Shown in pieces: positions 1-16,817 of a stretch of DNA of 64,000 nucleotides (within the stretch, counting starts at the first letter, position 1; every line of letters begins with the position of its first letter). Made by a program: the position numbers and the translations under genes. The notes under the pieces are model-generated. The model was given only the letters and a program-made list of their open reading frames with translations, did no database searches and was not told the DNA's origin. Source of the stretch: Escherichia coli (lineage in GTDB: Bacteria > Pseudomonadota > Gammaproteobacteria > Enterobacterales > Enterobacteriaceae). Location of the stretch: NCBI RefSeq assembly GCF_024700885.2, contig NZ_CP117016.1. One strand, 5' to 3'.

Positions 1-215
1 AGTCAAATTTGTCCAACTTCCCTTGATTAAAAACAACGAGTTTTTTTATAGAAAAGAAAAACTTTCTCGCATAAGCTGAACTAAAATTCACAGCAGTATA
101 GGCAAGGGTCTCTTTTATAGATGCTAATAAGATAGCATTAATGTTTCTTTCAAAATATGAGAAATTTAATTTAACATCTTTGCTGAGAAACCAAACACTA
201 TCATGTAAACTAAAA

Positions 216-1547
216 TTATTTCTGCTGTCTTTTGCCTTTAATACCAAGTAATTTTCTAACATTAATGCTTTCATCTATTTCTCCTTCAATTTTATTTATG
301 ATTTCTTGATTCACTAAATCTGCCTCTTCAAAAGCTTTTAAAGTTTCTTCACTAATATAACGATTGTTATAAATCAAAGCCGTTTTGGAGTTCATTTTCC
401 ACCCCATTCTTACGCATCTGATTCTATCTAATTGGGTCAATCTATATTGATCAGTGACTCCTATGTATTTTAAACTGTAAATATAGTTCCATGTGTGCCG
501 TAGACAATGCCCTGTGAAATTTTGAAAAGATACTCCATTGAATTCAATTCTACTTATTTGCTTAATTACTTTATGATATGCACTTATTGACAGAGGAAAT
601 CCTTCCGTAGGACCAGATTTTTGAGTAATAAATAAGTAATTATGATTTAAGCTTTTCGAATAGAAAGACCTATCATTGTCTATATATGAAGAGATTTGCA
701 TAGACAATTTTTTGCTAATATTTAATTCTCGTTCAAATGTTTTAACAAGTGGTTGAAAAACTCTTGGGTCTGCTGGATCATTTATTCTTTTACAAACTTT
801 CAGATATCTTTTTTCCTTGTTAAAATCAGTAATTTTCAAGTTCAATAGCTCACCCCCTCGCATTCCAGTTTCCTGAAGAATGAGGATTATGAGTTGATTT
901 CTTTTACGGCAACTGATATCAACAAATGGATTGTATTGGCTTTCAGGTTCTATACATTGCAATAGAATGTCTAAGCTTTCTTTTTCTAATGATTTAAAAT
1001 CATTATTCAAATAGAATTGAGAGTTTAATTTTGGTTTATGTTTACGAAAAAGCAAACTAACACTTTTTGATATAATGTTTGTCTCATATATTGTAGTGCT
1101 AAAATATGATTCATAAATCCAAGAAATGTAGGAACTAATTACTGTCAATCTATAATGAAGATTTTCTTGATTGATCTTTTTATACTCTTTTATATCTATA
1201 ACTTTTTGTTTTTTATTTTTAACTCTAAGTTGTTCTGACAATGAATAGATTTCAGTAAAGCTAAGGAAGGTCTTAGATCTAATTCTTTCGATAAGATTTA
1301 TATTTGATTCTATTAGATAATTTTCAAAAGCAATCAAAGTGTAAGCATTTCTCAATACTGTATTAAATGACTTATTCTTTTGCTTATATAGCAAACTAAG
1401 ATATATATTTTGATAATACAATGGCAAACCGTTTTTTGAATCCAAAATCATACAAAATCTGCTTCCATCACTCGCCATTAACTTCTTTACTGAATATCTC
1501 CTATTCATTATCACCCCATAATTTATTTTTTTATTTATAGGTAACAT
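216..1547 (-). mobile_element. Tyrosine site-specific recombinase (phage integrase family), AT-rich foreign gene
   Basis: 443 aa ORF; recombinase motifs seen in translation: ETGMRGGELLNL (box I Arg), GHCLRHTWNY (H-x-x-R), LIYNNRY (candidate catalytic Tyr). Strongly AT-rich codon usage unlike flanking core genes. ATG at 1545-1547. Confidence 0.6.
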
Positions 1548-1626
1548 AATTTTTTAGCAAGTTACAAATTTATTTGCTATTATTTTCAATGACCTTATTA
1601 CTCGCGACTCTAATAAAGAATCGGCC

Positions 1627-1652
1627 ATATATTCACCTTAAGGTGAATATAT
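1627..1652. promoter_or_regulatory. Perfect 26-bp palindrome ATATATTCACCTTAAGGTGAATATAT just upstream of the tRNA cluster; candidate operator or recombinase site
   Basis: Read directly: 11-bp inverted arms around a TTAA centre, followed by TTGACG at 1661-1666. Function unverified. Confidence 0.3.
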
Positions 1653-1680
1653 ATTCCCTCTTGACGCTCCAAAAAACAAT

Positions 1681-1757
1681 GCGGTAGTAGTTCAGTTGGT
1701 CAGAATATTCCCCTGTCACGGGAATGGTCGTGGGTTCGAGTCCCATCTATCGCGCCA
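1681..1757 (+). tRNA. tRNA-Asp (anticodon GUC), island-borne
   Basis: Manual cloverleaf fold: acceptor GCGGTAG/CTATCGC, D arm GTTC/GAAT, anticodon stem TTCCC/GGGAA with loop CTGTCAC, T arm GTGGG-TTCGAGT-CCCAT, discriminator G, encoded CCA. Confidence 0.7.
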
Positions 1758-1761
1758 GAAA

Positions 1762-1836
1762 GGGCAATTAACTCATTGGTAGAGTGTATCTCTTACAAAG
1801 ATATGGCGGTTGGTTCGATTCCAACATTGCCCACCA
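1762..1836 (+). tRNA. tRNA-Val (anticodon UAC), island-borne
   Basis: Manual fold: acceptor GGGCAAT/ATTGCCC, D arm ACTC/GAGT, anticodon stem TATCT/AGATA with loop CTTACAA, T arm GTTGG-TTCGATT-CCAAC, encoded CCA. Differs from the chromosomal E. coli tRNA-Val sequence as recalled. Confidence 0.7.
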
Positions 1837-1847
1837 AAACATAAAAT

Positions 1848-1918
1848 GCGTCAGTATTTCAATGGTAGAATAAAACATTGCCAATGTTTAGGTGAGGGTT
1901 CGATCCCCCTATATTTAC
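1848..1918 (+). tRNA. tRNA-like element with Gly (GCC) anticodon arm; 3-prime acceptor strand not complementary, so possible pseudo-tRNA or recombination remnant
   Basis: D arm TTTC/GAAT, anticodon stem AAACA/TGTTT with loop TTGCCAA, T loop TTCGATC present. 5-prime acceptor GCGTCAG has no complementary 3-prime strand (ATATTTA) and no CCA. Confidence 0.3.
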
Positions 1919-2104
1919 TTTAGTTAGTAACTCATTGATATAAAATAAATAATAGAAAAGTGTAATTTGTTTTGTAAAGCACAAATAAGAAATTAGAAAA
2001 TATTTAAATGTACAGTGTACGAAAAATTAACCAACTATGTTAATGGCAACTATATGATGATAAAATTACTCATCTAACGATCTATATTATATGAGTAATG
2101 TTTC

Positions 2105-2680
2105 ATGGTACGAAAAATCTCTACATTTTTAAAGATAATAGGAGTTATAGGTTCTTTATGCGGGATTATTGCGACAGTATTCACAATCTATGCGTACTAC
2201 AACCCGACCTCCCCTTCTACTCAGAGATATGACAGTATTGTAGGAAGCTGGCTATCTGATTACTCTTACACCGTAAAAGGGAATACCGTTAGGGTTAATG
2301 GAAAAACGACCTTCTTCTCTAATGGAAAATACAACTTTCATGGCAGTATCTCTATTGACTCTAATGCTCCAGGTGACCATATATTAATAGATTATCTTTC
2401 TGATGGTGCTGGTGATTGGGAACTATATGATAATGAGTTAATTACATCATTAAATAGCCTAAAAACAAAACCTATGAAGCTGGCTTTAAATAACGAAGAT
2501 CTTGATCCACTGAAAATAGAGGTGATAAACAATAAAAAGTTACCAACTATTGAGGAGAATATGGCTGATGGGAAAAACCAATCCTATAAAATAATAAAAT
2601 CTTCAAAAAGCCAGTTAACATTGGAGGTTATTAACGAAATCGGAAGCAATTTCAACTTTACTATGCAAAAAACAAAATAG
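2105..2680 (+). CDS. Hypothetical membrane-anchored protein (single N-terminal TM helix), island cargo
   Basis: 191 aa ORF; hydrophobic N-terminus FLKIIGVIGSLCGIIATVFTIYAYY; AT-rich; convergent with the helicase gene and sharing a terminator with it. Confidence 0.45.
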   Translation: MVRKISTFLKIIGVIGSLCGIIATVFTIYAYYNPTSPSTQRYDSIVGSWLSDYSYTVKGNTVRVNGKTTFFSNGKYNFHGSISIDSNAPGDHILIDYLSDGAGDWELYDNELITSLNSLKTKPMKLALNNEDLDPLKIEVINNKKLPTIEENMADGKNQSYKIIKSSKSQLTLEVINEIGSNFNFTMQKTK

Positions 2681-2682
2681 AA

Positions 2683-2714
2683 ATGATGGCGATCTGAAAT
2701 CGCCATCATTTTTC
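2683..2714. terminator. Bidirectional rho-independent terminator between convergent genes
   Basis: Hairpin TGATGGCGAT-cugaa-ATCGCCATCA followed by TTTTT. Confidence 0.5.
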
Positions 2715-4560
2715 AACCTTGATAATCTTCAGCCTCGATACCACAATAAGTTATCATGTTTGTTATTAACGGTATATCATTACAATTCTGCTTGAAAGAC
2801 CTGCCATAACTATTGTTTCTTATTTTACAACGAGTCATTAATACTTCTTCAATGGCTCTTGAAAATGCCACAAAGACTGTTTTTTGATTTTCTATTTGCT
2901 CTTCTTCTTTACCAAAATAGGCACCAGGTTCAAGCCCCACAACGATGACCTTCCTGAACTCTAACCCTTTACTTTTATGGATGGTCATAAGAGGTATTGT
3001 TTTATTGCCAAGTAATAAATCAATGGCTTCTGATGTGTTTTCTTTTACATCTAACTTATCGAGGTGGCGAGAAAGTAATTCTATGCTATATTCTAAAACA
3101 TTCCCACTCATATACTGCGGAAAGTAAGACTTTATTTTATCGACACCAAATATACTTAATAATGAATATAAATAATCGACAATTTCTCCTTTAATTACCC
3201 GATGAGATTTAATAAACTGGCTAAGTTCTTTTTCTAACCGTGTAACATCACCTCTTTTACTTACTCCTCTTATATTACATAGAAGCTCCATTGTAGTGGC
3301 CCAGCTTTCTATGGATTTTCTATTACAGACAAACATTAGCATTTGTAAAAGTAACTGTACTACAGCTTCATTTAAAAGATCCTGATACTCGTTCTCAAGG
3401 CGACATTGTATTTTCAAATATTGCAATGCTGAAATGATATCGTCTGTATATTGTTTAGCCGGGTTTCTTAGCAGTATACATATATCTCTTTCATTTACTC
3501 CTTCAGCAATCCATTGCTGGATACATAATGCTATATATGCCCCTTCAATACTACTTTCGTCAAATTGTAGTAACTTAGCTGAACCTTCATTTTCAATCAA
3601 CATCATATCAGGCTTTATATCAGCATGATTCATGAAAGCTTCCATCATGCGTTGATAATTTATGAGGTTTTTTAATGACCTTCTATTGCTAACTAATTCA
3701 TTAGATTGTTCGATTCCAAAATCTTTTTTAAACACATCAAAAGCATTGTGCATTGCACCTGCCCAACCCATTATTCTTTGTTTTGTATCACCGACTGCTG
3801 TTATTTTTATTTTTTTACCCAAGAAAATGCTCTTAAAAATCTCATATTGCCTATATGTTGTGTCCTGAAACTCATCGATAAAAGCATAGTCATATGTTGA
3901 ATTTATAGCATTAGATAAATATTGATTCCTACTAATAATATAATTAGCAAGAAAATTAATCATCTTGAATGAAATCCTTGATTTTGGTTTTAATAAGTGT
4001 AACCACACAAACCGTCTTATCCTGCCATCAACAGAATGTTCTAATGCTTTATTATAAGGAGTTACTATATAATTCTCTTCAAAATTATAAGGTTGTAATT
4101 TATTTAATTCTTCAGATGTTAAACCTTCAAAGCCTACGGCCTCTCTTTTAATTTCTTCAACTAAATCATTATTATTTGGAAAGATTATTTCATAGTCATT
4201 TGATGGACGATAAGATTCCGGAATAGTGCTTTTAAAGCGATCAACAATACTTTTACAGAATGCATCAAATGTTGTTGATTCAAATTTGTGTCTATATTTT
4301 GTATCAAGCCGTGAGTTTACTCTATCTTGAAGATTTTTGGCCGCATCTTTTTTAAAGGATAATGCAATTATTTTTTTATTGCTGCATTTTCCTGTCTCAA
4401 TCAAGAAACAAGCTTTCTGAGCCAATAATTCTGTTTTACCTGCACCGGGACCAGCAAGAACGAGATTATGCCCTGTACTATTTCGAATTACCCTCATAGC
4501 CTCGTCTTCTACTTCTTGGATATCCTTTAAAACCCAATCGGCATCTTTAATAGTCGGCAT
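2713..4560 (-). CDS. UvrD/PcrA-like superfamily 1 helicase (GajB-like)
   Basis: 615 aa; SF1 helicase motifs in translation: LAGPGAGKTELL (I), IDEFQDTT (II), GDTKQRIMGW (III), VSNRRS (IV), TIHKSKGLEF (V), VAFSRA (VI). ATG overlaps the upstream stop by 1 nt (TAATG). Confidence 0.8.
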   Translation of the reverse strand: MPTIKDADWVLKDIQEVEDEAMRVIRNSTGHNLVLAGPGAGKTELLAQKACFLIETGKCSNKKIIALSFKKDAAKNLQDRVNSRLDTKYRHKFESTTFDAFCKSIVDRFKSTIPESYRPSNDYEIIFPNNNDLVEEIKREAVGFEGLTSEELNKLQPYNFEENYIVTPYNKALEHSVDGRIRRFVWLHLLKPKSRISFKMINFLANYIISRNQYLSNAINSTYDYAFIDEFQDTTYRQYEIFKSIFLGKKIKITAVGDTKQRIMGWAGAMHNAFDVFKKDFGIEQSNELVSNRRSLKNLINYQRMMEAFMNHADIKPDMMLIENEGSAKLLQFDESSIEGAYIALCIQQWIAEGVNERDICILLRNPAKQYTDDIISALQYLKIQCRLENEYQDLLNEAVVQLLLQMLMFVCNRKSIESWATTMELLCNIRGVSKRGDVTRLEKELSQFIKSHRVIKGEIVDYLYSLLSIFGVDKIKSYFPQYMSGNVLEYSIELLSRHLDKLDVKENTSEAIDLLLGNKTIPLMTIHKSKGLEFRKVIVVGLEPGAYFGKEEEQIENQKTVFVAFSRAIEEVLMTRCKIRNNSYGRSFKQNCNDIPLITNMITYCGIEAEDYQG

Positions 4561-6548
4561 TAAAGTAATCCTCTTACTGTTTCGATAATTTCATTAAGAA
4601 CTTCAGGACTATCATCTCTTAACTTATCGTCTTCCATTTTTGATAGAACATAATTGTGCGATAATGGTTTACCTCTTCCTAAAAATAGGTAACGATACCA
4701 AAAATATTTTTCATAATCATCGAACTCACTAATATCAATATCTTTCTCTTCTTTTTTCAAAACTGCAGCAATTGCCGATTTAACTTTATTATCATATTCA
4801 TGATCGTCATCTTTTGGCAATCTTGGCCCACCATTTTTGGGAACAAATGTCTTATAATCCTCAAAGAATTTATTAAGCATTAGCCAATCTAAATCGTAGG
4901 GGTAAGAAAAATAAACATTATAATCTTTTAGACAATTAATCCATGCCGATTCATTATCTTGATCCTCATCCCATGTATGCATTTTTTCAAGCTCTTCATC
5001 ACTTAAAGTTCCTGAAGTAATACTTAACAATTCATTTTTATCTGCACCTATAGATATTAATTGTTTGACTGCATATTTAATTCTTCCCCAACCACCACCT
5101 CCTCCTCTCTTGAAATCATAGTCGAGAAGAGTCACATGTGGAATTGAAAGCTCATTGAGTAACTTCCAAAAATGATTAACATATCGCCCTCCTAATGGAG
5201 CAAATGTTATCAATGAAGTGTCAAGCTCTATACCATTTACTTGAGCTATTTTAGGTATTACTATTTCTTCGCTATCACCTTCACCAAGTATTACAACTTT
5301 TGCAAAATAAATTTCTGGATATGCCTTCACTGCTTCTTTTACATAAGTGAAAGTATCAACATTGTCTCCATCGTCTTCATCTTCGCTTGGTAATAATATT
5401 GGTTTGACAACAGTATTTTTATTATCATGTAGACGAAAATACCTTATATTTTCTGGTTCTACTCTATTGAGTAATGAAGGTGCGTGTGTTGTTAAAACAA
5501 CCTGTGCTCGATCATTCTCAGATATATCTTCACATAGTTTAACTATTCTTCCTAAATATTGGGGTGAAAGATGATTTTCTGGTTCTTCGATTAATATTAT
5601 CGTTAAATTTGGAGGATCTAATGCTTCTACTGATATTGATAATTCATTTTCTCCTGAATTAATGATCTCATCTTCAATATCAAATGCAGATTTGACTAAC
5701 GAAAGATAAAACAATGACTTCATACCATCACTCAATCTTTCAGTTGGTAATGGCTGAGTCACCGGAGTAGGCATAAATACAGTATCTATATGCTTTAATA
5801 CATCTTCTATTCCATTCATTACTGGCTGAATTTTAAGCTGTTCAAAATACCCTCCGCTAAAAAGAGTTTTCCAATTTCTGCCCAATGAAGATGTTATTGT
5901 CTGAACCCCAATTTCTTCTTGGAACTGGTTTCCGATTGATTCTGCAACCTCATCAACCGTTGAACTCATCTGTTCAGACCATTCAACTGCATTTATCAAA
6001 CGGTGCATGATGGTTCCGGCTGTTTGCTTCAGTTGTTGAGCAGGATCGCGATAAGCAGGGACATAATGAACATGGATTTTTGATCTTTCATATGCTGTAA
6101 TATTTTTTTCATATTCTCCTATTTCCCATACTAAATCACTATCTATATCCCCTTCTGCAAGATTAGTTTTTGTCCATTTAGCTTTTAATTTTGCTATACA
6201 GTATGGGATCTGGTCTGCTTCATTTGAGACCAAATGCTTAAAGAAATCAGCGACTGAATCGTCCTCACCATCTTGCAGATCTGCAAATTCAAATTTTACA
6301 CGAACTGATAATTCTCTTTCATCTTGAGTATCGATTTCATCTCCAGGAGGAACATAAAAATCATCAACTTGAACAATTCTATCGGAGCTTTTGACACCAA
6401 ACATCCTTGTCAATGCGAGGAGAACAGCCGTCTTACCTGTTCCATTCCCTCCAATTAAGCTGGTGAATGAATTTATATTTATAGTTTGCCCTACATTATC
6501 AAAGCTCTTAAAACCTTTGATCTCCATTTGTGTAATTTTCATTATCAC
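4560..6548 (-). CDS. OLD-family ABC-type ATPase with C-terminal TOPRIM nuclease domain (GajA-like)
   Basis: 662 aa ORF from a GTG; likelier ATG start at 6542 with GAGGTG Shine-Dalgarno. Walker A GGNGTGKT, ILIEEPENHLSP (Walker B/D-loop typical of OLD ATPases), VLTTHAP (H-loop), TOPRIM-like VVILGEGDSEEIV and LLDYDFKRGGGGGWG. Confidence 0.8.
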   Translation of the reverse strand: MIMKITQMEIKGFKSFDNVGQTININSFTSLIGGNGTGKTAVLLALTRMFGVKSSDRIVQVDDFYVPPGDEIDTQDERELSVRVKFEFADLQDGEDDSVADFFKHLVSNEADQIPYCIAKLKAKWTKTNLAEGDIDSDLVWEIGEYEKNITAYERSKIHVHYVPAYRDPAQQLKQTAGTIMHRLINAVEWSEQMSSTVDEVAESIGNQFQEEIGVQTITSSLGRNWKTLFSGGYFEQLKIQPVMNGIEDVLKHIDTVFMPTPVTQPLPTERLSDGMKSLFYLSLVKSAFDIEDEIINSGENELSISVEALDPPNLTIILIEEPENHLSPQYLGRIVKLCEDISENDRAQVVLTTHAPSLLNRVEPENIRYFRLHDNKNTVVKPILLPSEDEDDGDNVDTFTYVKEAVKAYPEIYFAKVVILGEGDSEEIVIPKIAQVNGIELDTSLITFAPLGGRYVNHFWKLLNELSIPHVTLLDYDFKRGGGGGWGRIKYAVKQLISIGADKNELLSITSGTLSDEELEKMHTWDEDQDNESAWINCLKDYNVYFSYPYDLDWLMLNKFFEDYKTFVPKNGGPRLPKDDDHEYDNKVKSAIAAVLKKEEKDIDISEFDDYEKYFWYRYLFLGRGKPLSHNYVLSKMEDDKLRDDSPEVLNEIIETVRGLL

Positions 6549-7195
6549 CTCAATTGCTGTTTTAAAAAATTATAATCACTAATTATTTCTGCGTTTGTAA
6601 TGATTTCTTGTGAGCACAGCTTAAAACATTCTAAAAATATATTTTTATTATCGTTATGTTCCCAATGTTTTTTCAAAGCTTCTTCAATTGAAATCCAAAT
6701 AACTTGAAAATCGTTATTAGATATTTGGCTTGTTAAAACTGTTTCTTCCACACAAAGTATATGCCCTAAGATGACATCATCGTATATGTCAGTATCTGAA
6801 TCTCTAACTCCTAACCTTTTTATTTTCCTTTTTTGGATGATTTTATTTTTAACAATAAAAGGATGTTCTTCTATAAAATCGGTCAATGATGTAAAAGCCA
6901 AGCCACGAACCTGAGCACCATGCATTGAACTATTTACTTTATGGATATCTCTCCAAACTCGCAGATCACCTAATACATAGAGAACCCGCTGATTTCTCGC
7001 TTTCGTATCTTCTGCTTGGTATTGGATATAAGGTGGCCCTCCCCCATTTTGTCTATATCGGGCAAGGGTTTTGATGCTTATGCCAAGAAAGACAGAAGCA
7101 AGCTCACTATTTACAGTGGCAGAATCAGGCATTTGACCAAATAGTTTCCATACCTCTGAATACTCCCGCAAAACTTCCACCACACTCATCTTCAC
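6545..7195 (-). CDS. HTH-domain protein (excisionase/MerR-like N-terminus plus uncharacterised ~130 aa C-terminal domain), first gene of the defense operon
   Basis: 216 aa ORF (GTG at 7195 or ATG at 7189). N-terminal ELASVFLGISIKTLARYRQNGGGPPYIQY resembles excisionase-type HTH. Starts within 2 nt of the integrase stop and ends 2 nt before the GajA-like start. Confidence 0.5.
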   Translation of the reverse strand: MKMSVVEVLREYSEVWKLFGQMPDSATVNSELASVFLGISIKTLARYRQNGGGPPYIQYQAEDTKARNQRVLYVLGDLRVWRDIHKVNSSMHGAQVRGLAFTSLTDFIEEHPFIVKNKIIQKRKIKRLGVRDSDTDIYDDVILGHILCVEETVLTSQISNNDFQVIWISIEEALKKHWEHNDNKNIFLECFKLCSQEIITNAEIISDYNFLKQQLR

Positions 7196-8655
7196 TCCCT
7201 CGTTTCAGGTAATGGAGGATACTTAGCCGAAGCAAGTAACACATTGTATAATTTAGGAGCAGTCATAAGCATATGCAACTCAATCCTTTGTAATGCTTCA
7301 AAAATCCGTTCTTGATCAGGTTCTGCATACCTTTCTGTTGGATCTGTTGTATTTCTGTGATTGAGCAGTCTCTTAACGACGGCATATGAAACAAGTTCTT
7401 CAGCAACCCTACCAAATGTCCTTCGTAGATCATGCATACCAAGCTTCAGGATTCCCGCCTCTTGGCAGATATATTCCCTTAGACTTTTACTATCGGAATA
7501 GTGACCAACTTTACTTCGAGAAGAACGGGCCGGGAAAACCCACTTCTGTTTGTCCTTCTGGGTTACCGTATCGTTTACTATGTCTCTTCTATCTTCCAAA
7601 ATTCTTTTGACAGCATCACAAATCGGAAGCTCGTGATCGTTTCGATTCTTAGTGTCGTAAAAACGGATAGTTCTGTTACTCAGGTCAACATAGCTTGTCG
7701 TTTTAGCTTCTTCCTTTGTAAGAGACTCTCGCCAACACAGAGAAGCTGTTTCTTCCTTACGAGCACCTAAGAGAACGGTAAGTAGCAGATAATCGCACCC
7801 AAGCCGGTTGAAGCTTCTCTTGTTGAACAATGCAGTCAAGAACCGACCAAGTGTATCCTTTGGTGATAAGGGGTTTCTGACACCTTTTGCCCGATAACTA
7901 TCCTCAAGCTCAGAACGTGTCCTAAACTTTTTCTGTACCTTTAAGATACTGAAAGGGTTGTAAGATAGAGAAGGTTGTCGTTGCTGGGTCTGAGCATTCC
8001 CAGCTTCAATCTCTATTGCGTGTTTTACAGCAACATTCGCCCACCTAAAGGTCTGTTCCGCTGCTGTTCTGGCTCTTGAAGCAATCTCATCAAACTTCCT
8101 AAGAATTTCATTACCAGTAAGATCTTTAACTCGCAAACCAGCCCACTCAGAAAGCCTGTTTTCTGCTTTATCTAATACAGCCAAGGTGTTGGGTTTAGCT
8201 GGTTTCGCTCTACCCAGCAGATGCTGGCGGTATTGTGCAAACACTTCACTGATAGTGAGTTCAGAAGCATCGGACTCCCGTTTTATTTTGTTAGGGTTCC
8301 TTTTGGTCAACTTCATGGTTTGAACTAAATTGCGAGCAACCTCGCGGGCTTGATCGATGTTAGCGAAATCAGAGACATTGCCAATTGTAGACCTGATAAC
8401 CTCAGATGGGGATTTTCCCCCTGTCTTAGGGCGATTGCCAGGAGAAGAGACTCGTCGCTGAACGATATAGGTCTTTTTCGTTGCACTGATTTTGACACCA
8501 AAACCAACGGGTGAATCCCGGTGATTATCAGTGATAAGATACGGTTTTCGCTCTGGATTGGGTAAGTAGACTACTCTGCCTTGCGGATCAAGGCTCGGTT
8601 TCACGTCGATAGATAACTTATTGATTATAATCGACTGATTGAGTGTCATTTTCAT
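7192..8655 (-). mobile_element. int: P4-type tyrosine integrase
   Basis: ORF track 7192..8763; trimmed to internal ATG (MKMTLNQ...) at 8653-8655. N-terminal arm-binding-like region (YLITDNHRDSPVGFGVKISATKKTYIVQRR), box I ARKEE, HDLRRTF, C-terminal ERY. Near-host GC, unlike the cargo. Confidence 0.8.
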
Positions 8656-8658
8656 CGA

Positions 8659-8717
8659 TGTATACCAGTGGTTCAAGTGTGTATACCAGATAGTAGCTAG
8701 AATACTTCTGGTATACA
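8659..8717. repeat. Three copies of TGTATACCAG (two direct, one inverted) at the integrase 5-prime end; candidate integrase-binding or att-associated sites
   Basis: Exact 10-mers at 8659-8668 and 8680-8689 (direct) and 8708-8717 (inverted), between the integrase start and mutS. Confidence 0.45.
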
Positions 8718-8787
8718 AATTTATGGGTTTATGTGAGTTTAAAGGGGTATCACTTGGGGCCACATAAGTACTCAGAAGACTTTAAAA

Positions 8788-11370
8788 ATGAGTAAAATCA
8801 ATATGAAAGAGTCTGCAAGCAAGGATCTATCAGACCACACTCCTATGATGCAGCAATATCTCAAGCTGAAAGCCCAGCATCCCGAGATCCTGCTGTTTTA
8901 CCGGATGGGTGATTTTTATGAACTGTTTTATGACGACGCAAAACGCGCGTCGCAACTGCTGGATATTTCACTGACCAAACGCGGTGCTTCGGCGGGAGAG
9001 CCGATCCCGATGGCGGGGATCCCCTACCATGCGGTGGAAAACTACCTCGCCAAACTGGTGAATCAGGGCGAGTCCGTTGCCATCTGCGAACAAATTGGCG
9101 ATCCGGCGACCAGCAAAGGTCCGGTTGAGCGCAAAGTTGTGCGTATCGTTACGCCAGGCACCATCAGCGATGAAGCCCTGTTGCAGGAGCGTCAGGACAA
9201 CCTGCTGGCGGCTATCTGGCAGGACAGCAAAGGTTTCGGCTACGCGACGCTGGATATCAGTTCCGGGCGTTTTCGCCTGAGCGAACCGGCTGACCGCGAA
9301 ACGATGGCGGCAGAGCTGCAACGCACTAATCCGGCAGAGCTGTTGTATGCAGAAAATTTCGCCGAGATGTCGCTGATTGAAGGTCGTCGCGGACTGCGCC
9401 GTCGCCCGCTATGGGAGTTTGAAATCGACACCGCGCGCCAGCAGTTGAATCTGCAATTTGGCACCCGCGATCTGGTCGGTTTTGGCGTCGAGAACGCGCC
9501 GCGCGGACTTTGTGCTGCCGGTTGTCTGTTGCAGTATGCGAAAGATACCCAACGTACGACTCTGCCGCATATTCGTTCCATCACCATGGAACGTGAGCAG
9601 GACAGCATCATTATGGATGCCGCGACGCGTCGTAATCTGGAAATCACCCAGAACCTGGCGGGTGGTGCGGAAAATACGCTGGCTTCTGTGCTCGACTGCA
9701 CCGTCACGCCGATGGGCAGCCGTATGCTGAAACGCTGGCTGCATATGCCAGTGCGCGATACCCGCGTCTTGCTTGAGCGCCAGCAAACTATTGGCGCATT
9801 GCAGGATTTCACCGCCGAGCTGCAGCCGGTACTGCGTCAGGTCGGCGACCTGGAACGTATTCTGGCGCGTCTGGCTTTACGAACTGCTCGCCCACGCGAT
9901 CTGGCCCGTATGCGTCACGCTTTCCAGCAACTGCCGGAGCTGCGTGCGCTATTAGAAAATGTCGATAGCGCTCCGGTACAGGCGCTGCGTGAAAAAATGG
10001 GCGAGTTTGCCGAGCTGCGCGATCTGCTGGAGCGAGCAATCATCGACACACCGCCAGTGCTGGTACGCGACGGTGGTGTTATCGCACCGGGCTATAACGA
10101 AGAGCTGGATGAGTGGCGCGCGCTGGCTGACGGCGCGACCGATTATCTGGAGCGTCTGGAAGTCCGCGAGCGTGAACGTACTGGCCTGGACACCCTGAAA
10201 GTCGGCTTTAACGCGGTTCATGGTTATTACATTCAGATCAGCCGTGGACAAAGCCATCTGGCACCCATCAATTACATGCGTCGCCAGACGCTGAAAAACG
10301 CCGAGCGCTACATTATTCCAGAGCTAAAAGAGTACGAAGACAAAGTTCTCACTTCAAAAGGCAAAGCACTGGCACTGGAAAAACAGCTTTATGAAGAGTT
10401 GTTCGACCTGCTGTTGCCGCATCTGGAAGCGTTGCAACAGAGCGCGAGCGCGCTGGCGGAACTCGACGTGCTGGTGAACCTGGCAGAACGGGCCTATACG
10501 CTGAACTACACCTGCCCGACCTTTATTGATAAACCGGGTATTCGCATCACCGAAGGCCGCCATCCGGTGGTTGAACAGGTGCTGAATGAGCCGTTTATCG
10601 CCAACCCGCTGAACCTGTCGCCGCAGCGTCGCATGTTGATCATTACCGGTCCGAATATGGGCGGTAAAAGTACCTATATGCGCCAGACCGCACTGATTGC
10701 GCTGATGGCCTACATCGGCAGCTATGTACCGGCACAAAAAGTCGAGATTGGACCTATCGATCGCATCTTTACCCGCGTAGGGGCAGCGGATGATCTGGCA
10801 TCCGGGCGTTCAACCTTTATGGTGGAAATGACCGAAACCGCCAATATTTTACATAACGCCACCGAGTACAGTCTGGTGCTGATGGATGAGATTGGGCGCG
10901 GGACGTCCACTTACGATGGTCTGTCGCTGGCGTGGGCGTGCGCGGAAAATCTGGCGAATAAGATTAAAGCGTTGACACTGTTTGCCACCCACTATTTCGA
11001 GCTGACCCAGTTACCGGAGAAAATGGAAGGCGTCGCCAACGTGCATCTCGATGCGCTGGAGCACGGCGACACCATTGCCTTTATGCACAGCGTGCAGGAT
11101 GGCGCGGCGAGCAAAAGCTACGGCCTGGCGGTTGCAGCTCTGGCAGGCGTGCCAAAAGAGGTTATTAAGCGCGCACGGCAAAAACTGCGTGAGCTGGAAA
11201 GCATTTCGCCGAACGCCGCCGCTACGCAAGTGGATGGTACGCAAATGTCTTTGCTGTCAGTGCCAGAAGAAACGTCGCCTGCGGTCGAGGCACTGGAAAA
11301 CCTCGACCCGGATTCACTGACTCCGCGTCAGGCGCTGGAGTGGATTTATCGCTTGAAGAGTCTGGTGTAA
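8788..11370 (+). CDS. mutS: DNA mismatch repair protein MutS, with a non-K-12 N-terminus
   Basis: 860 aa; near-identical to E. coli MutS from about residue 17 (HTPMMQQYL...). First ~16 residues ([16 protein letters not shown]) differ from the K-12 N-terminus (MSAIENFDA, from memory). Confidence 0.95.
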
Positions 11371-11376
11371 TAACAA

Positions 11377-11403
11377 TTCCCGATAGTCTTTTGCTATCGG
11401 GAA
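11377..11403. terminator. Hairpin downstream of mutS
   Basis: TTCCCGATAG-tcttttg-CTATCGGGAA inverted repeat. Confidence 0.4.
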
Positions 11404-11475
11404 TATTAACGACAACTGACGAATCAAATAAAAACACCCTGTATAATAGGAAATCTTATTTTACAGGGTAAAACC

Positions 11476-12132
11476 ATGCCATCTACACGCTATCAAAAAA
11501 TTAATGCCCATCACTATCGTTATATATGGGCCGTTGGTGATATTCATGGTGACTATCAATTATTACAATCCCGCTTACATCAACTCTCTTTTTGCCCTGA
11601 AACCGACTTACTTATTTCTGTCGGCGATAATATTGATCGTGGGCCGGAGAGTCTTAACGTACTACGCCTGTTAAACCAGCCCTGGTTTACATCGGTTAAA
11701 GGCAACCATGAAGCGATGGCGCTTGATGCATTCGAAACTGGCGATGGAAATATGTGGCTTGCCAGCGGCGGCGACTGGTTCTTTGAATTAAATGAGACGG
11801 AACAACAAGAAGCAATAAATCTGTTGCTGAAATTTCATCGCCTTCCACATATTATTGAAATCACTAACGATATAATAAAATATGTCATCGCACATGCAGA
11901 TTATCCGGGGAATGAATATCTCTTTGGCAAAGAAATAGCGGAGAGAGAACTACTCTGGCCTGTTGATCGTGTGCAGAAATCGCTTAATGGCGAGTTACAA
12001 CAAATAAACGGCGCTGATTATTTTATATTTGGACATATGATGTTTGATAACATTCAGACGTTCGCAAACCAGATTTATATTGATACCGGATCGCCGAAAA
12101 GCGGGCGGCTGTCATTTTATAAAATAAAGTAG
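11476..12132 (+). CDS. pphB: Serine/threonine protein phosphatase 2
   Basis: 218 aa, metallophosphatase motifs GDIHGD, GDNIDRG, GNHE; position after mutS as in K-12. Confidence 0.9.
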   Translation: MPSTRYQKINAHHYRYIWAVGDIHGDYQLLQSRLHQLSFCPETDLLISVGDNIDRGPESLNVLRLLNQPWFTSVKGNHEAMALDAFETGDGNMWLASGGDWFFELNETEQQEAINLLLKFHRLPHIIEITNDIIKYVIAHADYPGNEYLFGKEIAERELLWPVDRVQKSLNGELQQINGADYFIFGHMMFDNIQTFANQIYIDTGSPKSGRLSFYKIK

Positions 12133-12133
12133 T

Positions 12134-12159
12134 CTCATGCTTCTTCTGTGAAGCATGAG
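12134..12159. terminator. Bidirectional hairpin between pphB and ygbI
   Basis: CTCATGCTTC-ttctgt-GAAGCATGAG perfect inverted repeat. Confidence 0.4.
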
Positions 12160-12182
12160 TAACCCGGTGTTATTGCAGGCCA

Positions 12183-12980
12183 TTATTCATTTTTCGCTAC
12201 CAGCAAAGAGAGATCCTGCTTCGCCAGCGCGCGACTGGCACTCTCCGGCAAACCGTCGTCTGTAATAATCTGATCAAACTCGCTTAATGGTAACGCCAGC
12301 CATGTCGCCACCTGACCATATTTCGTCGCATCACAGACCAAAACTCGCTGGCGGCTGGCACTGGCAATCGCCCGTTTCACCGTGACTTTATCTTCCGCTG
12401 GCGTAGAAATCCCCCGCACACTCCATGACGATGCAGAAATAAAAGCCTGATCAATCATCAGGCTGCGCAGCATGGTCGCAGCGGCTTCCCCGACACAGGA
12501 ACGGTTTTCCCGACACACTGCACCGCCAGTGTGAATAATTGTGCAATTACTGTTGTCGAGCAAGTAGTCCGCAATAACGAAATCGTTTGTGACCACAGTC
12601 AGTGACTCCATGTGAATCAGATGCTGTGCTATCGCTAGCGTGGTCGTTCCCGCATCCAGATAGATACAACTTCCCGGCTGAACAAGACTTGCCGCCAGCT
12701 TGCCAATAGCCGCTTTTTGCGTCATTGCCAGCGCAGTTTTTACCTGATGAGAAGGTTCATGCGCCACGCGTCCCGGAGACTGGACGCCTCCGGACACCAG
12801 CACAACGGCTCCCTGCTGCTCCAGTTTTTGTAAATCCCGACGAATGGTCATATGTGACACATTCATTCTGTCCGTTAGTTCAGCAATACTGACAATGCCT
12901 TTTTCAGCTACCATCTCAAGGATGATTTGGCGACGCTCTACGGGTATCAACTTTTGCTCCTTCCTTTGTCCTGCTGACAT
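12183..12980 (-). CDS. ygbI: DeoR-family transcriptional regulator
   Basis: N-terminal HTH (MNVSHMTIRRDLQKLE) plus sugar-binding domain; ORF start may be over-extended by ~10 codons. Confidence 0.85.
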   Translation of the reverse strand: MSAGQRKEQKLIPVERRQIILEMVAEKGIVSIAELTDRMNVSHMTIRRDLQKLEQQGAVVLVSGGVQSPGRVAHEPSHQVKTALAMTQKAAIGKLAASLVQPGSCIYLDAGTTTLAIAQHLIHMESLTVVTNDFVIADYLLDNSNCTIIHTGGAVCRENRSCVGEAAATMLRSLMIDQAFISASSWSVRGISTPAEDKVTVKRAIASASRQRVLVCDATKYGQVATWLALPLSEFDQIITDDGLPESASRALAKQDLSLLVAKNE

Positions 12981-13145
12981 TCTACGCTATTTGCCTGCGA
13001 AACGTGCGCGGCGCAACTAACGCTTAGTTCACATAAAATAACACACAATGTTAATTTTTGTGAATCAGCTCACCATATCGTTATCTTTCAGCGCTTATAT
13101 TCACAATATCAAACAAAATATCACTTAAATTAACAAGGAGAGCAG

Positions 13146-14054
13146 ATGAAAACGGGATCTGAGTTTCATGTCGGTATCGTTGGCTTAGGGTCAATGGGAA
13201 TGGGAGCAGCACTGTCATGTGTCCGCGCAGGTCTTTCTACCTGGGGCGCAGACCTGAACAGCAATGCCTGCGCTACGTTGAAAGAGGCAGGTGCTTGCGG
13301 GGTTTCTGATAACGCCGCGACGTTTGCCGAAAAACTGGACGCTCTGCTGGTGCTGGTGGTCAATGCGGCCCAGGTTAAACAGGTGCTGTTTGGTGAAACA
13401 GGCGTTGCACAACATCTGAAACCCGGTACGGCAGTAATGGTTTCTTCCACTATCGCTAGTGCTGATGCGCAAGAAATTGCTACCGCTCTGGCTGGATTCG
13501 ATCTGGAAATGCTGGATGCGCCAGTTTCTGGTGGTGCAGTAAAAGCCGCTAACGGTGAAATGACTGTCATGGCCTCCGGTAGCGATATTGCCTTTGAACG
13601 ACTGGCACCCGTGCTGGAAGCCGTTGCCGGAAAAGTTTATCGCATAGGTGCAGAACCGGGACTAGGTTCGACCGTAAAAATTATTCACCAGTTGTTAGCG
13701 GGCGTACATATTGCTGCCGGAGCCGAAGCGATGGCACTTGCAGCCCGTGCGGGGATCCCGCTGGATGTGATGTATGACGTCGTGACCAATGCCGCCGGAA
13801 ATTCCTGGATGTTCGAAAACCGGATGCGTCATGTGGTGGATGGCGATTACACCCCGCATTCAGCCGTCGATATTTTTGTTAAGGATCTTGGTCTGGTTGC
13901 CGATACAGCCAAAGCCCTGCACTTCCCGCTGCCATTGGCCTCAACAGCATTGAATATGTTCACCAGCGCCAGTAACGCGGGTTACGGGAAAGAAGACGAT
14001 AGCGCAGTTATCAAGATTTTCTCTGGCATCACTCTACCGGGAGCGAAATCATGA
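13146..14054 (+). CDS. ygbJ: 3-hydroxyisobutyrate dehydrogenase-family oxidoreductase (L-threonate dehydrogenase)
   Basis: 302 aa, Rossmann GLGSMG motif; synteny with ygbK. Confidence 0.85.
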   Translation: MKTGSEFHVGIVGLGSMGMGAALSCVRAGLSTWGADLNSNACATLKEAGACGVSDNAATFAEKLDALLVLVVNAAQVKQVLFGETGVAQHLKPGTAVMVSSTIASADAQEIATALAGFDLEMLDAPVSGGAVKAANGEMTVMASGSDIAFERLAPVLEAVAGKVYRIGAEPGLGSTVKIIHQLLAGVHIAAGAEAMALAARAGIPLDVMYDVVTNAAGNSWMFENRMRHVVDGDYTPHSAVDIFVKDLGLVADTAKALHFPLPLASTALNMFTSASNAGYGKEDDSAVIKIFSGITLPGAKS

Positions 14055-15313
14055 TCAAGATTGGCGTTATCGCCGATGATTTTACCGGCGCGACGGATAT
14101 CGCCAGTTTTCTGGTGGAAAACGGTCTACCAACGGTACAAATTAACGGTGTTCCAACAGGTAAAATGCCGGAAGCAATCGACGCACTGGTGATCAGCCTG
14201 AAAACGCGTTCCTGTCCGGTGGTTGAAGCCACACAGCAATCGCTGGCGGCTCTGAGCTGGTTGCAACAGCAAGGTTGCAAACAGATCTATTTCAAATACT
14301 GCTCTACTTTCGACAGTACGGCGAAAGGTAATATCGGCCCGGTTACCGATGCATTAATGGATGCTCTCGACACGCCGTTTACGGTCTTCTCTCCGGCCCT
14401 GCCGGTCAACGGACGTACGGTTTATCAGGGGTATTTGTTCGTAATGAATCAACTGCTGGCCGAATCTGGGATGCGCCATCACCCGGTAAATCCCATGACC
14501 GACAGCTATCTTCCCCGTCTGGTTGAAGCGCAATCCACAGGGCGCTGCGGCGTCGTTTCGGCACATGTTTTCGAACAAGGTGTGGATGCCGTTCGTCAAG
14601 AGCTGGCTCGCTTACAGCAAGAGGGCTACCGCTACGCGGTGCTTGATGCGCTGACCGAACACCATCTGGAAATTCAGGGAGAAGCCTTGCGCGATGCCCC
14701 ACTGGTAACGGGCGGTTCTGGTCTGGCGATTGGCCTTGCCCGGCAGTGGGCGCAAGAAAACGGTAACCAGGCTCGCAAAGCAGGGCATCCGCTCGCTGGG
14801 CGCGGCGTAGTGCTCTCCGGTTCATGCTCTCAAATGACCAACCGCCAGGTAGCACATTACCGTCAAATTGCACCAGCCCGTGAAGTTGATGTGGCACGCT
14901 GCCTCTCAATTGAAACTCTGGCCGCTTATGCACACGAACTGGCAGAGTGGGTTCTGGGCCAGGAAAGTGTACTTGCTCCACTGGTTTTTGCCACCGCCAG
15001 CACTGACGCATTGGCAGCAATTCAACAGCAATACGGTGCACAAAAAGCCAGTCAGGCAGTAGAAACACTGTTTTCTCAACTAGCGACGCGGTTAGCCGCG
15101 GAAGGCGTGACACGCTTTATTGTCGCAGGCGGTGAGACCTCCGGCGTAGTCACACAGAGCCTGGGAATAAAAGGGTTTCATATTGGCCCAACCATTTCCC
15201 CCGGCGTGCCGTGGGTAAACGCACTGGATAAGCCTGTCTCACTCGCCCTTAAATCTGGCAACTTCGGTGATGAAGCCTTTTTTTCACGAGCCCAAAGAGA
15301 GTTTTTATCATGA
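14051..15313 (+). CDS. ygbK: Four-carbon acid sugar kinase (3-oxo-tetronate kinase)
   Basis: 420 aa; 4-nt overlap with ygbJ; K-12 synteny. Confidence 0.85.
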   Translation: MIKIGVIADDFTGATDIASFLVENGLPTVQINGVPTGKMPEAIDALVISLKTRSCPVVEATQQSLAALSWLQQQGCKQIYFKYCSTFDSTAKGNIGPVTDALMDALDTPFTVFSPALPVNGRTVYQGYLFVMNQLLAESGMRHHPVNPMTDSYLPRLVEAQSTGRCGVVSAHVFEQGVDAVRQELARLQQEGYRYAVLDALTEHHLEIQGEALRDAPLVTGGSGLAIGLARQWAQENGNQARKAGHPLAGRGVVLSGSCSQMTNRQVAHYRQIAPAREVDVARCLSIETLAAYAHELAEWVLGQESVLAPLVFATASTDALAAIQQQYGAQKASQAVETLFSQLATRLAAEGVTRFIVAGGETSGVVTQSLGIKGFHIGPTISPGVPWVNALDKPVSLALKSGNFGDEAFFSRAQREFLS

Positions 15314-15948
15314 GCGATTTCGCAAAAGTAGAGCAGTCTTTGCGAGAGGAGATGACGCGGATTGCCAGTTCATTCTTTCAGCGCGGCTATGCAACCGGTT
15401 CGGCTGGCAATCTGTCGCTGCTTTTACCTGACGGGAATTTACTGGCGACACCGACAGGTTCATGCCTGGGCAATCTCGATCCGCAGCGGCTTTCCAAAGT
15501 CGCCGCGGATGGCGAATGGTTAAGTGGTGACAAACCCTCGAAAGAGGTGCTCTTTCATCTGGCGCTGTATCGCAACAATCCGCGCTGTAAAGCGGTGGTG
15601 CATTTGCACAGCACATGGTCGACGGCGCTTTCCTGCCTGCAAGGGCTGGACAGCAGCAACGTTATTCGTCCGTTCACACCATACGTGGTGATGCGGATGG
15701 GAAATATCCCGCTGGTGCCTTATTACCGACCGGGCGATAAACGCATCGCACAGGATCTGGCGGAACTGGCAGCAGACAATCAGGCTTTTTTACTGGCAAA
15801 TCATGGCCCAGTGGTTTGCGGTGAAAGCCTGCAAGAAGCCGCCAACAATATGGAAGAGCTGGAGGAAACGGCAAAGCTGATTTTTATTCTCGGTGACCGC
15901 CCGATCCGTTATCTGACCGCAGGTGAAATTGCGGAATTAAGGAGTTAA
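15310..15948 (+). CDS. ygbL: Class II aldolase/adducin-family protein (3-oxo-tetronate 4-phosphate decarboxylase)
   Basis: 212 aa; overlaps ygbK stop; K-12 synteny. Confidence 0.85.
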
Positions 15949-15952
15949 TGCA

Positions 15953-16729
15953 ATGCCTCGTTTTGCAGCTAATTTATCCATGATGTTCACCGAAGTGCCT
16001 TTTATTGAACGCTTCGCCGCAGCGCGAAAAGCCGGGTTCGATGCTGTGGAATTTCTGTTTCCCTATAACTACTCCACCCTGCAAATCCAAAAGCAACTGG
16101 AGCAAAACCATCTGACACTGGCGCTGTTCAATACCGCTCCCGGAGATATTAATGCGGGGGAATGGGGATTATCCGCCCTTCCCGGACGTGAGCACGAAGC
16201 ACACGCAGACATCGACCTGGCACTGGAATATGCATTGGCGCTCAATTGTGAACAAGTCCATGTGATGGCAGGCGTCGTGCCCGCTGGCGAAGATGCTGAA
16301 CGGTACAGGGCAGTATTTATCGATAATATCCGCTACGCTGCCGACCGCTTTGCACCACACGGCAAGCGAATATTAGTTGAAGCACTCAGCCCCGGCGTTA
16401 AGCCTCATTATCTCTTCTCCAGCCAGTATCAGGCACTGGCTATTGTTGAAGAAGTTGCGCGAGATAACGTGTTTATTCAACTAGATACTTTTCATGCGCA
16501 AAAAGTAGATGGCAACCTGACGCATTTAATCCGCGACTACGCCGGGAAATATGCGCACGTACAAATTGCCGGACTACCTGATCGACATGAACCGGACGAT
16601 GGAGAAATCAACTATCCGTGGCTGTTCCGCCTGTTCGATGAGGTGGGATATCAGGGCTGGATCGGTTGTGAATATAAACCTCGTGGCCTCACCGAAGAAG
16701 GGCTTGGCTGGTTTGACGCCTGGCGCTAA
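15953..16729 (+). CDS. ygbM: Hydroxypyruvate isomerase-like TIM-barrel protein
   Basis: 258 aa; K-12 synteny. Confidence 0.85.
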
Positions 16730-16817
16730 TTCGTTAAATCCCTAATTACAACGTACCCATACATCCCCCCATCTACGGATGGGGTAGGTTAACTATAACT
16801 TTCAGACAGGGTTTCCC

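Follow-up and report, generated by a model that had tools for sequence, protein, structure and literature searches.

Mobile elements within mutS were described by Chu, Clarke, Timberlake, Polz, Grossman and Alm in 2017 (mBio, PMC5296598), who found that these elements target the HTPMMQQ motif and supply the gene with a new start and promoter. In that study, scar-free excision was shown experimentally for the mutS element of E. coli 536, the 2-bp scar and the hypermutator switch were confined to Vibrio splendidus 12B01, and an element of E. coli E24377A was listed in Table S2 (PMC5296598). The mutS/ygbA interval was also reported by Hochhauser, Millman and Sorek in 2023 as E. coli defence hotspot 8, where 27 of 1,322 genomes (about 2%) are occupied (PMC10121019). 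The same part of the chromosome, the fhlA-mutS interval, is the position of SPI-1 (PMC7232297).

In K-12, mutS follows ygbA after 286 bp, whereas the ygbA-mutS interval of E. coli MLI114 contains 17.8 kb of additional DNA. The window analyzed here is a stretch of 64,000 nucleotides of MLI114, and we are highly confident that its positions 1-8844 are the half of a 17.8-kb integrative mobilizable element that contains the integrase, the element being integrated at the HTPMMQQY codons of mutS. The whole island is 17,837 bp long; the other ~9 kb and attL are located to the left of the window (positions 11008-20000 of the MLI114 locus, L001). The GC content was 25-38% at positions 1-6750, 39-45% at 6751-8750 and at least 53% from 8751 onward. 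The initial annotation of the window had regarded the low-GC DNA as foreign relative to K-12 and had put its left boundary outside the window. Both points were borne out, and the left boundary was found ~8.98 kb further to the left (L001 11008-11021). The right boundary, which had been set at about 8,760, was shifted to 8844, followed by a common core at 8845-8858. The features on the mutS side are as follows.

1-8844, no strand assigned: integrative mobilizable element, right-hand 8.84 kb (locus comparison, junction alignment, low GC)
6545-7189, minus strand: 214-aa protein, always beside the integrase (49-52% identity, same position in the loci L003, L004 and L006)
7192-8655, minus strand: mutS-specific tyrosine integrase, 487 aa (Pfam Phage_integrase PF00589, E 2.6e-10)
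8656-8802, plus strand: element-borne int-mutS spacer, inferred site of a substitute mutS promoter and ribosome-binding site (conservation)
8659-8717, two on the minus and one on the plus strand: putative arm-type binding sites of the integrase, TGGTATACA, three copies (repeat scan, attR arm)
8803-11370, plus strand: hybrid intact mutS, 855 aa (identity with K-12 MutS at 840 of 852 aligned residues)
8803-8844, plus strand: element-supplied first 14 mutS codons (junction alignment, MutS comparison)
8845-8858, plus strand: attR core ATGATGCAGCAATA, region of the strand exchange (identity with the attL core ATGATGCAGCAGTA)

In a three-way alignment with K-12, both breakpoints fell at the HTPMMQQY codons, and within these codons ATGATGCAGCA(G/A)TA was common to attL and attR. 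The left junction retained the K-12-type mutS promoter and codons 1-17 as an orphan: L001 10972-11021 corresponds to the K-12 mutS start (17 residues) and diverges thereafter, so that the stranded native start now encodes an orphan peptide of 34 codons, as judged by translation of the open reading frame. A crossover inside the 5' end of mutS, as suggested earlier, was thereby supported. Direct repeats and a left junction, which had been left to be sought in the full genome, were both found, the repeats at the two island ends being imperfect and attL lying in the MLI114 locus. Neither an ordinary allelic variant nor foreign DNA ending upstream of the mutS promoter without repeats was what these comparisons returned. 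The attL and attR cores have a single mismatch, G versus A, and since they differ at this position the exchange point is placed within the core and not at an exact nucleotide. By our own estimate, ~40 pairs of 11-nt repeats are expected by chance in 18.9 kb; the significance of the 11-nt repeat comes from its location exactly at both homology breakpoints and from its recurrence at either end in six independent elements.

The arms gave a second line of evidence. In addition to the three copies of the 9-mer TGGTATACA in the attR arm, a fourth was found 85 bp inside attL. These were the only 4 matches in 49.4 kb, all within the att arms, where 0.18 were expected, and 0 of 100 shuffled sequences reached 4. 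Other elements had a different repeat, AGCTACA, in both arms, so the arm repeats change in step between elements. Six independent E. coli elements, which range from 10.4 to 17.8 kb and differ in cargo, share the attL/attR structure.

From HTPMMQQY onward, MutS of MLI114 shows 99% identity to K-12 MutS and the differences are confined to the residues before this motif, in agreement with the conservation from HTPMMQQYL that had been noted in the window. The change of the 5' end also stood, but the count of about 16 new codons holds only if translation starts from the ATG at 8788. The ATG at 8803 gives 11 residues before the His of the motif. Since the ATG of 8788 reads ACG in relatives and PGAP calls the start at 8803, the second ATG is more likely the true mutS start. 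With the new start codon and codons at attR and the native start stranded, the proposal that the element supplies a replacement start was confirmed. The int-mutS spacer is conserved across the element family and across genera, and every gene in the 6 kb upstream of mutS is on the opposite strand. A sigma-70 promoter and terminator consensus scan of window positions 8450-8900 gave no match, and thus no promoter-like site in the spacer; a substitute mutS promoter there is proposed on the strength of how the genes are oriented and how well the arm is conserved.

The integrase gene starts at 8655 and mutS at 8803, leaving a 147-bp spacer, within the 300 bp used for mutS-targeting elements. The catalytic residues R...HxxR...Y were visible as ARKEE, HDLRRT and ERY in an alignment with the integrase of E24377A, which was taken as comparator in place of the family-defining Vibrio splendidus 12B01 integrase and is 84% identical in amino acids to that of MLI114. 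A match to the arm-binding domain was weak (PF13356, E 0.039). Integrases beside mutS in other E. coli are 82-92% identical to the MLI114 integrase. The neighboring 214-aa protein had no significant Pfam domain, its HTH_17 match being non-significant, and from its constant position it may be an excision or regulatory factor. NCBIfam and PADLOC searches gave no match for the integrase, the 214-aa protein or a 191-aa protein further to the left.

The remaining island features in the window are listed below.

216-1508, minus strand: ginA-like tyrosine recombinase, 430 aa, first of a four-gene GInt-like module (NCBIfam Xer-type recombinase matches, gene order, modules of 33-35% identity in two other elements, same position)
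1681-1757, plus strand: tRNA-Asp (GTC), AT-rich (ARAGORN; Rfam 66.6 bits)
1762-1836, plus strand: tRNA-Val (TAC) (ARAGORN; Rfam 67.8 bits)
1855-1910, plus strand: partial third tRNA-like sequence (Rfam tRNA 34.4 bits, model positions 8-63 only)
2105-2680, plus strand: 191-aa protein, function unassigned (45-46% identity to proteins beside the recombinase module in other elements)
2713-4560, minus strand: GajB, UvrD-type helicase of Gabija (PADLOC GajB, E 2.6e-198, full length)
4560-6542, minus strand: GajA, ATPase/nuclease of Gabija (PADLOC GajA, E 1.8e-240, full length)

The adjacent gajA and gajB were confirmed, at the level of profile matches, as a predicted Gabija anti-phage system. The tRNA-Asp gene belongs to a 250-bp indel missing in close relatives, and we take it to differ from the chromosomal tRNA-Asp of E. 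coli. The third tRNA-like sequence has by eye a GCC anticodon loop and is probably degenerate. For the 191-aa protein, PHROGs likewise gave no match, and PHROGs and PADLOC searches with eight left-end genes returned nothing useful. A relaxase was annotated by PGAP at L001 14269-15450, and it is conserved in the element family together with a small upstream protein, whereas no type IV secretion genes were annotated in the island. An integrase and a relaxase without a conjugative apparatus define an integrative mobilizable element, and the island was classified as such. Its annotation also contains no type III secretion genes. Hence, the parallel with SPI-1 that was drawn at first applies to the fhlA-mutS interval, the only thing in common, and not to the gene content.

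The GInt-like module encodes proteins of 430, 456, 548 and 127 aa in overlapping open reading frames, genes 2-4 being to the left of the window. Proteins 1 and 2 match recombinase models in NCBIfam, and the 548-aa third protein has no significant Pfam domain. The ginABCD operon consists of two RHRY recombinases, a recombinase-fold protein without catalytic residues and a small protein. The MLI114 module fits it in gene order and sizes, and it is by these that the two are likened; the gene order of SE elements does not match. A weak NCBIfam match to GmtY, the recombinase of the gamma-mobile trio (26.8 bits versus a cut-off of 340), was rejected as a sign of membership.

Integrase homologues were found in 133 of 5,426 complete E. 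coli genomes (2.5%), all of them chromosomal, and each related locus examined was at the mutS site. Near-identical copies of the MLI114 island (99.8-100% over 9.4 kb) were present in three strains. Since nucleotide alignment between elements covers only the integrase and relaxase regions, proteins were compared instead. The surrogate MutS N-terminus is similar to mutS starts found elsewhere in the Enterobacterales, and in many species truncated integrases, or the arm alone, were found beside a surrogate mutS start. The counts from our contig pattern scan for the family are lower bounds, as the scan was non-exhaustive and missed S. enterica subsp. enterica despite an exact match in the locus L105.

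On this basis we propose that the tyrosine integrase recombines the attP of the element with attB, the mutS codons for HTPMMQQY. The attP would carry substitutes for the promoter region and for the first codons, the latter ending with the ATGATGCAGCA(G)TA core. Because attP brings a promoter and codons that end in the same core, integration would leave mutS intact as a hybrid, and the native promoter and first 17 codons would be stranded 17.8 kb from mutS. Precise excision would put native mutS back in frame, and the MLI114 element can presumably excise at present. Anti-phage cargo, Gabija in the window, occupies variable slots, with the GInt-like three-recombinase module and two tRNA genes in addition. 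The element encodes a relaxase and lacks a conjugation apparatus, so it is probably carried along when a conjugative element transfers; its mobilization, like an effect on mutS expression or mutation rate, is to be regarded as a prediction.

Three other explanations were weighed against this model. The mutS 5' end might be an ordinary allele acquired by homologous recombination, with the island inserted separately upstream. The mutS gene is a known E. coli hotspot of phylogenetic incongruence (PMC2617782), and the likeness of the surrogate N-terminus to other Enterobacterales would fit an import; however, the native promoter and first 17 codons persist at the other island end and stop at the same 14-nt core, and the new start always accompanies integrase and arm, in six E. 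coli elements and many genera, which makes a separate import very improbable. A composite origin is a more serious matter: window positions 1 to ~1650 could belong to a second element, a GInt with its own cargo inserted into the mutS-targeting element. The two tyrosine recombinases, large domainless protein and small protein in overlapping frames follow the GInt order and not that of SE, the recombinase module is missing from the family members L004, L005 and L009, and defence-carrying GInts have been reported in E. coli. The modules of L001, L003 and L006 are also only 26-37% identical, versus 82-92% for the mutS integrases. These same modules nevertheless occupy one backbone position in three divergent elements, GInt termini and a target duplication were not found in the island, and elements that lack the module also have the relaxase block, the would-be GInt cargo. 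We consider a composite quite possible, though short of probable.

Lastly, the MLI114 island could be a fixed relic that no longer excises, as seems to be the case in other lineages. Decayed integrases or bare arms beside a surrogate start occur in many species, Salmonella enterica included, and one short element showed no excision in Chu et al. (PMC5296598). In MLI114, by contrast, the integrase is full length with its catalytic residues, the att sites at both ends and the four arm repeats are undamaged, and the nearly identical copies in three strains also argue against fixation. We therefore find a relic unlikely and retain the model of a mutS-targeting integrative mobilizable element.

A separate observation concerns Salmonella. 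The mutS start of S. enterica, with its upstream arm and integrase stub, resembles a fossil of the element family, lying where the SPI-1 locus meets mutS. We think it rather probable that in S. enterica subsp. enterica the mutS start (MNESFDKDFSNHTPMMQQ), the ~125 bp arm and the 133-codon integrase stub are a fossil attR, and that the family permanently rewired mutS in whole lineages; no statement of this reading was found in the literature searched. If it is true, the 5-kb mutS-proximal end of SPI-1 (TacAT, a pphB-like gene and the STM2908 region) would be decayed element cargo, and Salmonella mutS would long have been expressed from an element-derived promoter. The mutS att site of typical S. 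enterica appears to be occupied by a decayed relative of the element and not by SPI-1. The alternative that all of SPI-1 lies between attL and attR of such an element was rejected. No orphan mutS start was found at the Salmonella ygbA-sitA boundary or in the 10 kb upstream of mutS, and one Salmonella genome whose mutS start is of the native type has inv genes of SPI-1 immediately before that start, from which it follows that the SPI-1 core is not element cargo. Element decay, as these data suggest, makes the rewiring of mutS permanent, apparently including Salmonella enterica, and this bears on mutS expression and mutation rate in the affected lineages and on the origin of the mutS boundary of the SPI-1 locus. 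In E. coli, element-supplied control of a key mutation-avoidance gene would concern ~2.5% of genomes. As a clean and well-preserved example, the MLI114 island helps in annotating the mutS start, att sites and arm repeats, as well as a mobilizable island that carries Gabija.

Since mutS-targeting elements were published in 2017, the MLI114 island is a new example of a known phenomenon. It shares with the elements of Chu et al. the HTPMMQQ target, an integrase directly upstream of mutS, a host start orphaned on the opposite side, a start supplied by the element together with a promoter that is putative in MLI114, variable length and cargo, and E. coli hosts. Its combination of Gabija, a GInt-like module, a tRNA pair and a relaxase is not individually described there, and that study analyzed neither cargo as defence systems nor arm repeats (PMC5296598). 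Hotspot 8 is the same interval with defence-carrying mobile islands, at ~2% versus 2.5% in the present count. It was defined by flanking genes only; "mutS" is absent from the main text and insertion in the coding sequence is not discussed there (PMC10121019). The E. coli 536 element has the same target motif, with its orphan start likewise at attL and its surrogate start at attR, but differs in a direct repeat of ~32 bp and in a surrogate N-terminus changed by two residues only. It was rejected as a carrier of the same integrase, the adjacent recombinase being a 249-aa DUF4102 protein for which no similarity to the MLI114 integrase was detected. Hochhut and Waldor in 1999 reportedly located SXT/R391 elements at the 5' end of prfC, and Farrugia et al. 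in 2015 are said to have described islands with DusA-specific integrases at the 5' end of dusA. In both, a tyrosine integrase has its target at the 5' end of a conserved housekeeping gene, whose promoter and N-terminal codons are then replaced by those of the element; the target genes and integrase families differ from those of the MLI114 element. The SpyCI islands of Streptococcus pyogenes, at the 5' end of mutL, are also mobile islands at a mismatch-repair gene, and repair can depend on whether they are integrated; their integration is described as leading to a mutator state and their excision to the wild type (PMC3430984). By contrast, integration of the MLI114 element keeps mutS intact.

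The DNA left of mutS in E. coli MLI114 was initially annotated as low-GC and absent from K-12, and both properties held. Window 1-9400 is 100% identical to the chromosome of this strain (NZ_CP117013.1). The GC content is 25-38% in window 1-6750 and 39-45% across the integrase region, rising to at least 53% from 8751 on. The ygbA-mutS gap is 286 bp in K-12, while MLI114 carries 17.8 kb of extra DNA between the same genes. The junctions were mapped by aligning three sequences, the ygbA-mutS region of K-12 and the two MLI114 junctions. At the left junction (attL, the ygbA side, outside the window), the K-12-type intergenic region is whole and is followed by mutS codons 1-17, with divergence immediately past ATGATGCAGCAGTA. 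At the right junction (attR, the mutS side), no similarity to K-12 was observed until window 8844, and the sequence is K-12-like starting at ATGATGCAGCAATA (window 8845-8858). The foreign DNA therefore ends at 8844/8845, not at about 8760 as first proposed. Since the K-12 match extends up to the core on the left and from the core on the right, an imperfect direct repeat is common to both element ends (CCATACGCCCATGATGCAGCAGTA vs CCACACTCCTATGATGCAGCAATA). The alignment with K-12 that the initial annotation had suggested thus shows both ends breaking at the HTPMMQQY codons of mutS, and the left junction and direct repeats that it proposed to look for were both found, the repeat being imperfect.

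MLI114 MutS is identical to K-12 MutS at 840 of 852 residues and, as had been noticed from the sequence alone, the only replaced residues are those preceding HTPMMQQY. The stranded native start (17 mutS codons) now reads into 17 foreign codons and then a stop, giving an orphan ORF of 34 codons left of the window (10972-11076 in L001, the MLI114 locus including DNA left of the window). This K-12-type start at the left junction bears out the proposal that the crossover lies inside the mutS 5' end and that the element supplies the start. The proposed new start, with an N-terminus unlike that of K-12, was upheld, but not its position: the start codon is likely the second ATG (8803) rather than the first (8788), because the first ATG reads ACG in relatives and the PGAP start call is 8803. 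The observation is confirmed, and its interpretation as replacement of the mutS 5' end by the element is supported. The native mutS promoter and orphan start face the cargo genes of the left end, all of which lie on the same strand in MLI114, and the old promoter might drive their expression.

Features of the MLI114 element, from left to right (window coordinates)
Left of the window: small genes, a relaxase with a conserved small partner, and five unassigned ORFs
Last gene ending at 1508: recombinase module of four overlapping genes (two tyrosine recombinases, a 548-aa and a 127-aa protein)
1681-1910: tRNA-Asp, tRNA-Val and a tRNA-like fragment
2105-2680: 191-aa protein, without a match in family searches
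2713-6542: GajA and GajB (Gabija; PADLOC E 1.8e-240 and 2.6e-198)
6545-7189: conserved 214-aa protein, sole match HTH_17 (non-significant)
7192-8655, minus strand: tyrosine integrase, 487 aa (Pfam PF00589, E 2.6e-10; R, HxxR and Y residues visible)

A GInt-like four-gene module is nested in the island (window 216-1508 and L001 16895-21508). Its gene order is that of ginABCD of GInts, unlike the intA-tfp-intB-srap order of SE elements, and a domain search of its 548-aa protein returned no recognisable domain. Two other E. coli mutS elements (L003 and L006) have a counterpart of the module at this position of the backbone, with only 26-37% identity. Flanked by the recombinase module on one side and the 191-aa gene on the other, the AT-rich tRNA block contains tRNA-Asp(GTC), tRNA-Val(TAC) and a third, degenerate tRNA-like sequence. 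MLI114 and strain 4/4 have this 250-bp indel, and the close relatives L010 and L012 lack it.

Of 5,426 complete E. coli genomes, 133 gave a homologue in a search with the integrase gene, in every case on the chromosome. Five more elements from E. coli were compared closely: H9, YP3, 504838, N17 and E24377A (chromosome CP000800). In all five, the integrase adjoins mutS, the same core lies at either end, the native mutS start is orphaned beside ygbA, and the surrogate start has the form M(K/Q/N)E..(D/S)KD(L/F)S.HTPMMQQ. The elements are 10.4-17.8 kb long and have a common backbone of integrase (82-92% identity), its ~200-aa neighbour (49-52%), and relaxase plus partner. The cargo is variable, including Gabija, Drt3, a retron, an ABC three-component system, a NERD nuclease and a DUF4209 protein. 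Among relatives close to the MLI114 element, differences concern the left-end cargo, the presence of the 250-bp tRNA block and a ToxN/AbiQ gene inserted beside the integrase. In one of them, L012, a ToxN/AbiQ-type toxin gene (18306-18812) separates the 214-aa gene from the integrase, which suggests a third variable cargo slot.

Integrase-mediated recombination explains these structures best and is well supported at the sequence level. On this reading the HTPMMQQY codons of mutS serve as attB, and the integrase recombines them with an attP bearing the surrogate mutS 5' end; mutS stays intact after integration, and excision would bring native mutS back in frame. The 9-mer TGGTATACA occurs in 4 copies in 49.4 kb (0.18 expected; at least 4 in 0 of 100 shuffles), of which three lie 128-186 bp to the left of the attR core and the fourth 85 bp to the right of the attL core. 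Related elements carry another repeat, AGCTACA, in both arms. Such a pattern is what arm-type integrase binding sites, the putative role of these repeats, would show. Because a relaxase is present and transfer genes are absent, the element would probably be mobilized by a helper conjugative element.

We infer that the element also carries a substitute mutS promoter, since every gene in the 6 kb upstream of mutS is on the opposite strand, the native promoter is now 17.8 kb from the hybrid mutS, and the ~125-bp arm preceding the start is kept across genera, even beside decayed integrase. A sigma-70 consensus scan of the int-mutS region gave no site, which counts against such a promoter. Beyond mutS, the mutS-rpoS interval (window 12183-22155; L001 32183-42155) holds ygbI-ygbN, a hydroxyarylic acid decarboxylase cluster and a MarR-family gene. 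Its content differs in the other strains compared, consistent with a polymorphic region.

The surrogate N-terminus is reminiscent of Salmonella MutS. Species-representative genomes were scanned for the surrogate N-terminal codon pattern beginning K-D-(L/F), and the loci were grouped according to the integrase sequence found upstream. The pattern was found at at least 92 loci, a lower bound like the class counts, as S. enterica subsp. enterica is unlisted though L105 (a Salmonella enterica locus, GCA_014857425.1, JACXYE010000001.1) matches it exactly.

Integrase content upstream of the surrogate motif
Full-length integrase homologue 164-188 bp upstream: at least 12 loci
Integrase truncated although upstream sequence ample: at least 12 loci
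Arm homology alone: at least 3 loci

The full-length class includes Citrobacter, Dickeya, Erwinia, Rahnella, Pseudocitrobacter, Yokenella and S. enterica subsp. diarizonae. Element decay seems to have repeatedly fixed the substitute mutS start. In Pectobacterium, Serratia and some others, the likeness is limited to a ~25-nt leader GAGTAAAATCAATATG plus the N-terminal codons. The element may have acquired its surrogate 5' end from a host of this sort, or these lineages may hold very old element fossils.

In L105, mutS begins MNESFDKDFSNHTPMMQQ. Over 147 nt, the DNA upstream matches the element arm at 79% identity, and next to it the first 133 codons of the integrase remain as a stub (57% identity, E 3e-43). 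The same N-terminus is found in proteins labelled with the serovars Typhi, Enteritidis, Infantis, Montevideo and Mbandaka. In the SPI-1-bearing Salmonella CP065419.1, mutS begins MTDIKNLDSHTPMMQQ, the stub is absent and inv genes are immediately upstream. Alignment of the two showed 5,074 bp in L105 where CP065419.1 has 224 bp. This segment contains two small domain-of-unknown-function genes, TacA/TacT, a pphB-like phosphatase gene, the integrase stub and the arm, and its right edge is 9 nt before ATGATGCAGCA. At L105 4960-10042, arm and stub precede the element-type N-terminus MNESFDKDFSNH, and the 5-kb segment runs up to the HTPMMQQ codons; the 224 bp replaced hold the different, native-looking start of CP065419.1. 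In typical S. enterica, the end of the SPI-1 locus next to mutS looks like a decayed element of this family. That the SPI-1 core itself is element cargo was rejected: an orphan mutS start was found neither at the Salmonella ygbA-sitA boundary nor within 10 kb upstream of mutS, and the native-type start of CP065419.1 adjoins inv genes. Lerminiaux et al. (2020) gave STM2908 as unknown (PMC7232297). This reading of a probable Salmonella fossil was found neither in Chu et al. or Lerminiaux et al. nor by a targeted literature search, and may nonetheless have been published.

Chu et al. (2017) described mutS elements at the HTPMMQQ motif in hundreds of Beta- and Gammaproteobacteria; the elements supply a promoter and start of their own, and the host start is left orphaned (PMC5296598). 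The MLI114 element has exactly this arrangement. Their Table S2 lists a 12,690-bp element at CP000800.1:3020284 on the 'E. coli F11' row (PMC5296598); the E24377A element found here has exactly that length, and its integrase and the window integrase share 84% identity. The locus is also known as a hotspot, fhlA-mutS for island gain (Lerminiaux et al. 2020; PMC7232297) and mutS/ygbA as defence-island hotspot 8, filled in 27 of 1,322 genomes (Hochhauser et al. 2023; PMC10121019). Given the arrangement of Chu et al. and hotspot 8, the MLI114 island belongs to an already published kind. Excision was demonstrated experimentally in E. coli 536, where it is scar-free, and in Vibrio splendidus 12B01 it leaves a 2-bp scar that results in hypermutation (PMC5296598). 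The E. coli 536 element (L008 9845-24990) likewise sits at the mutS HTPMMQQ motif, with a direct repeat of ~32 bp, but its adjacent 249-aa DUF4102 recombinase is unrelated to the window integrase. Therefore, at least two integrase lineages target the mutS site in E. coli.
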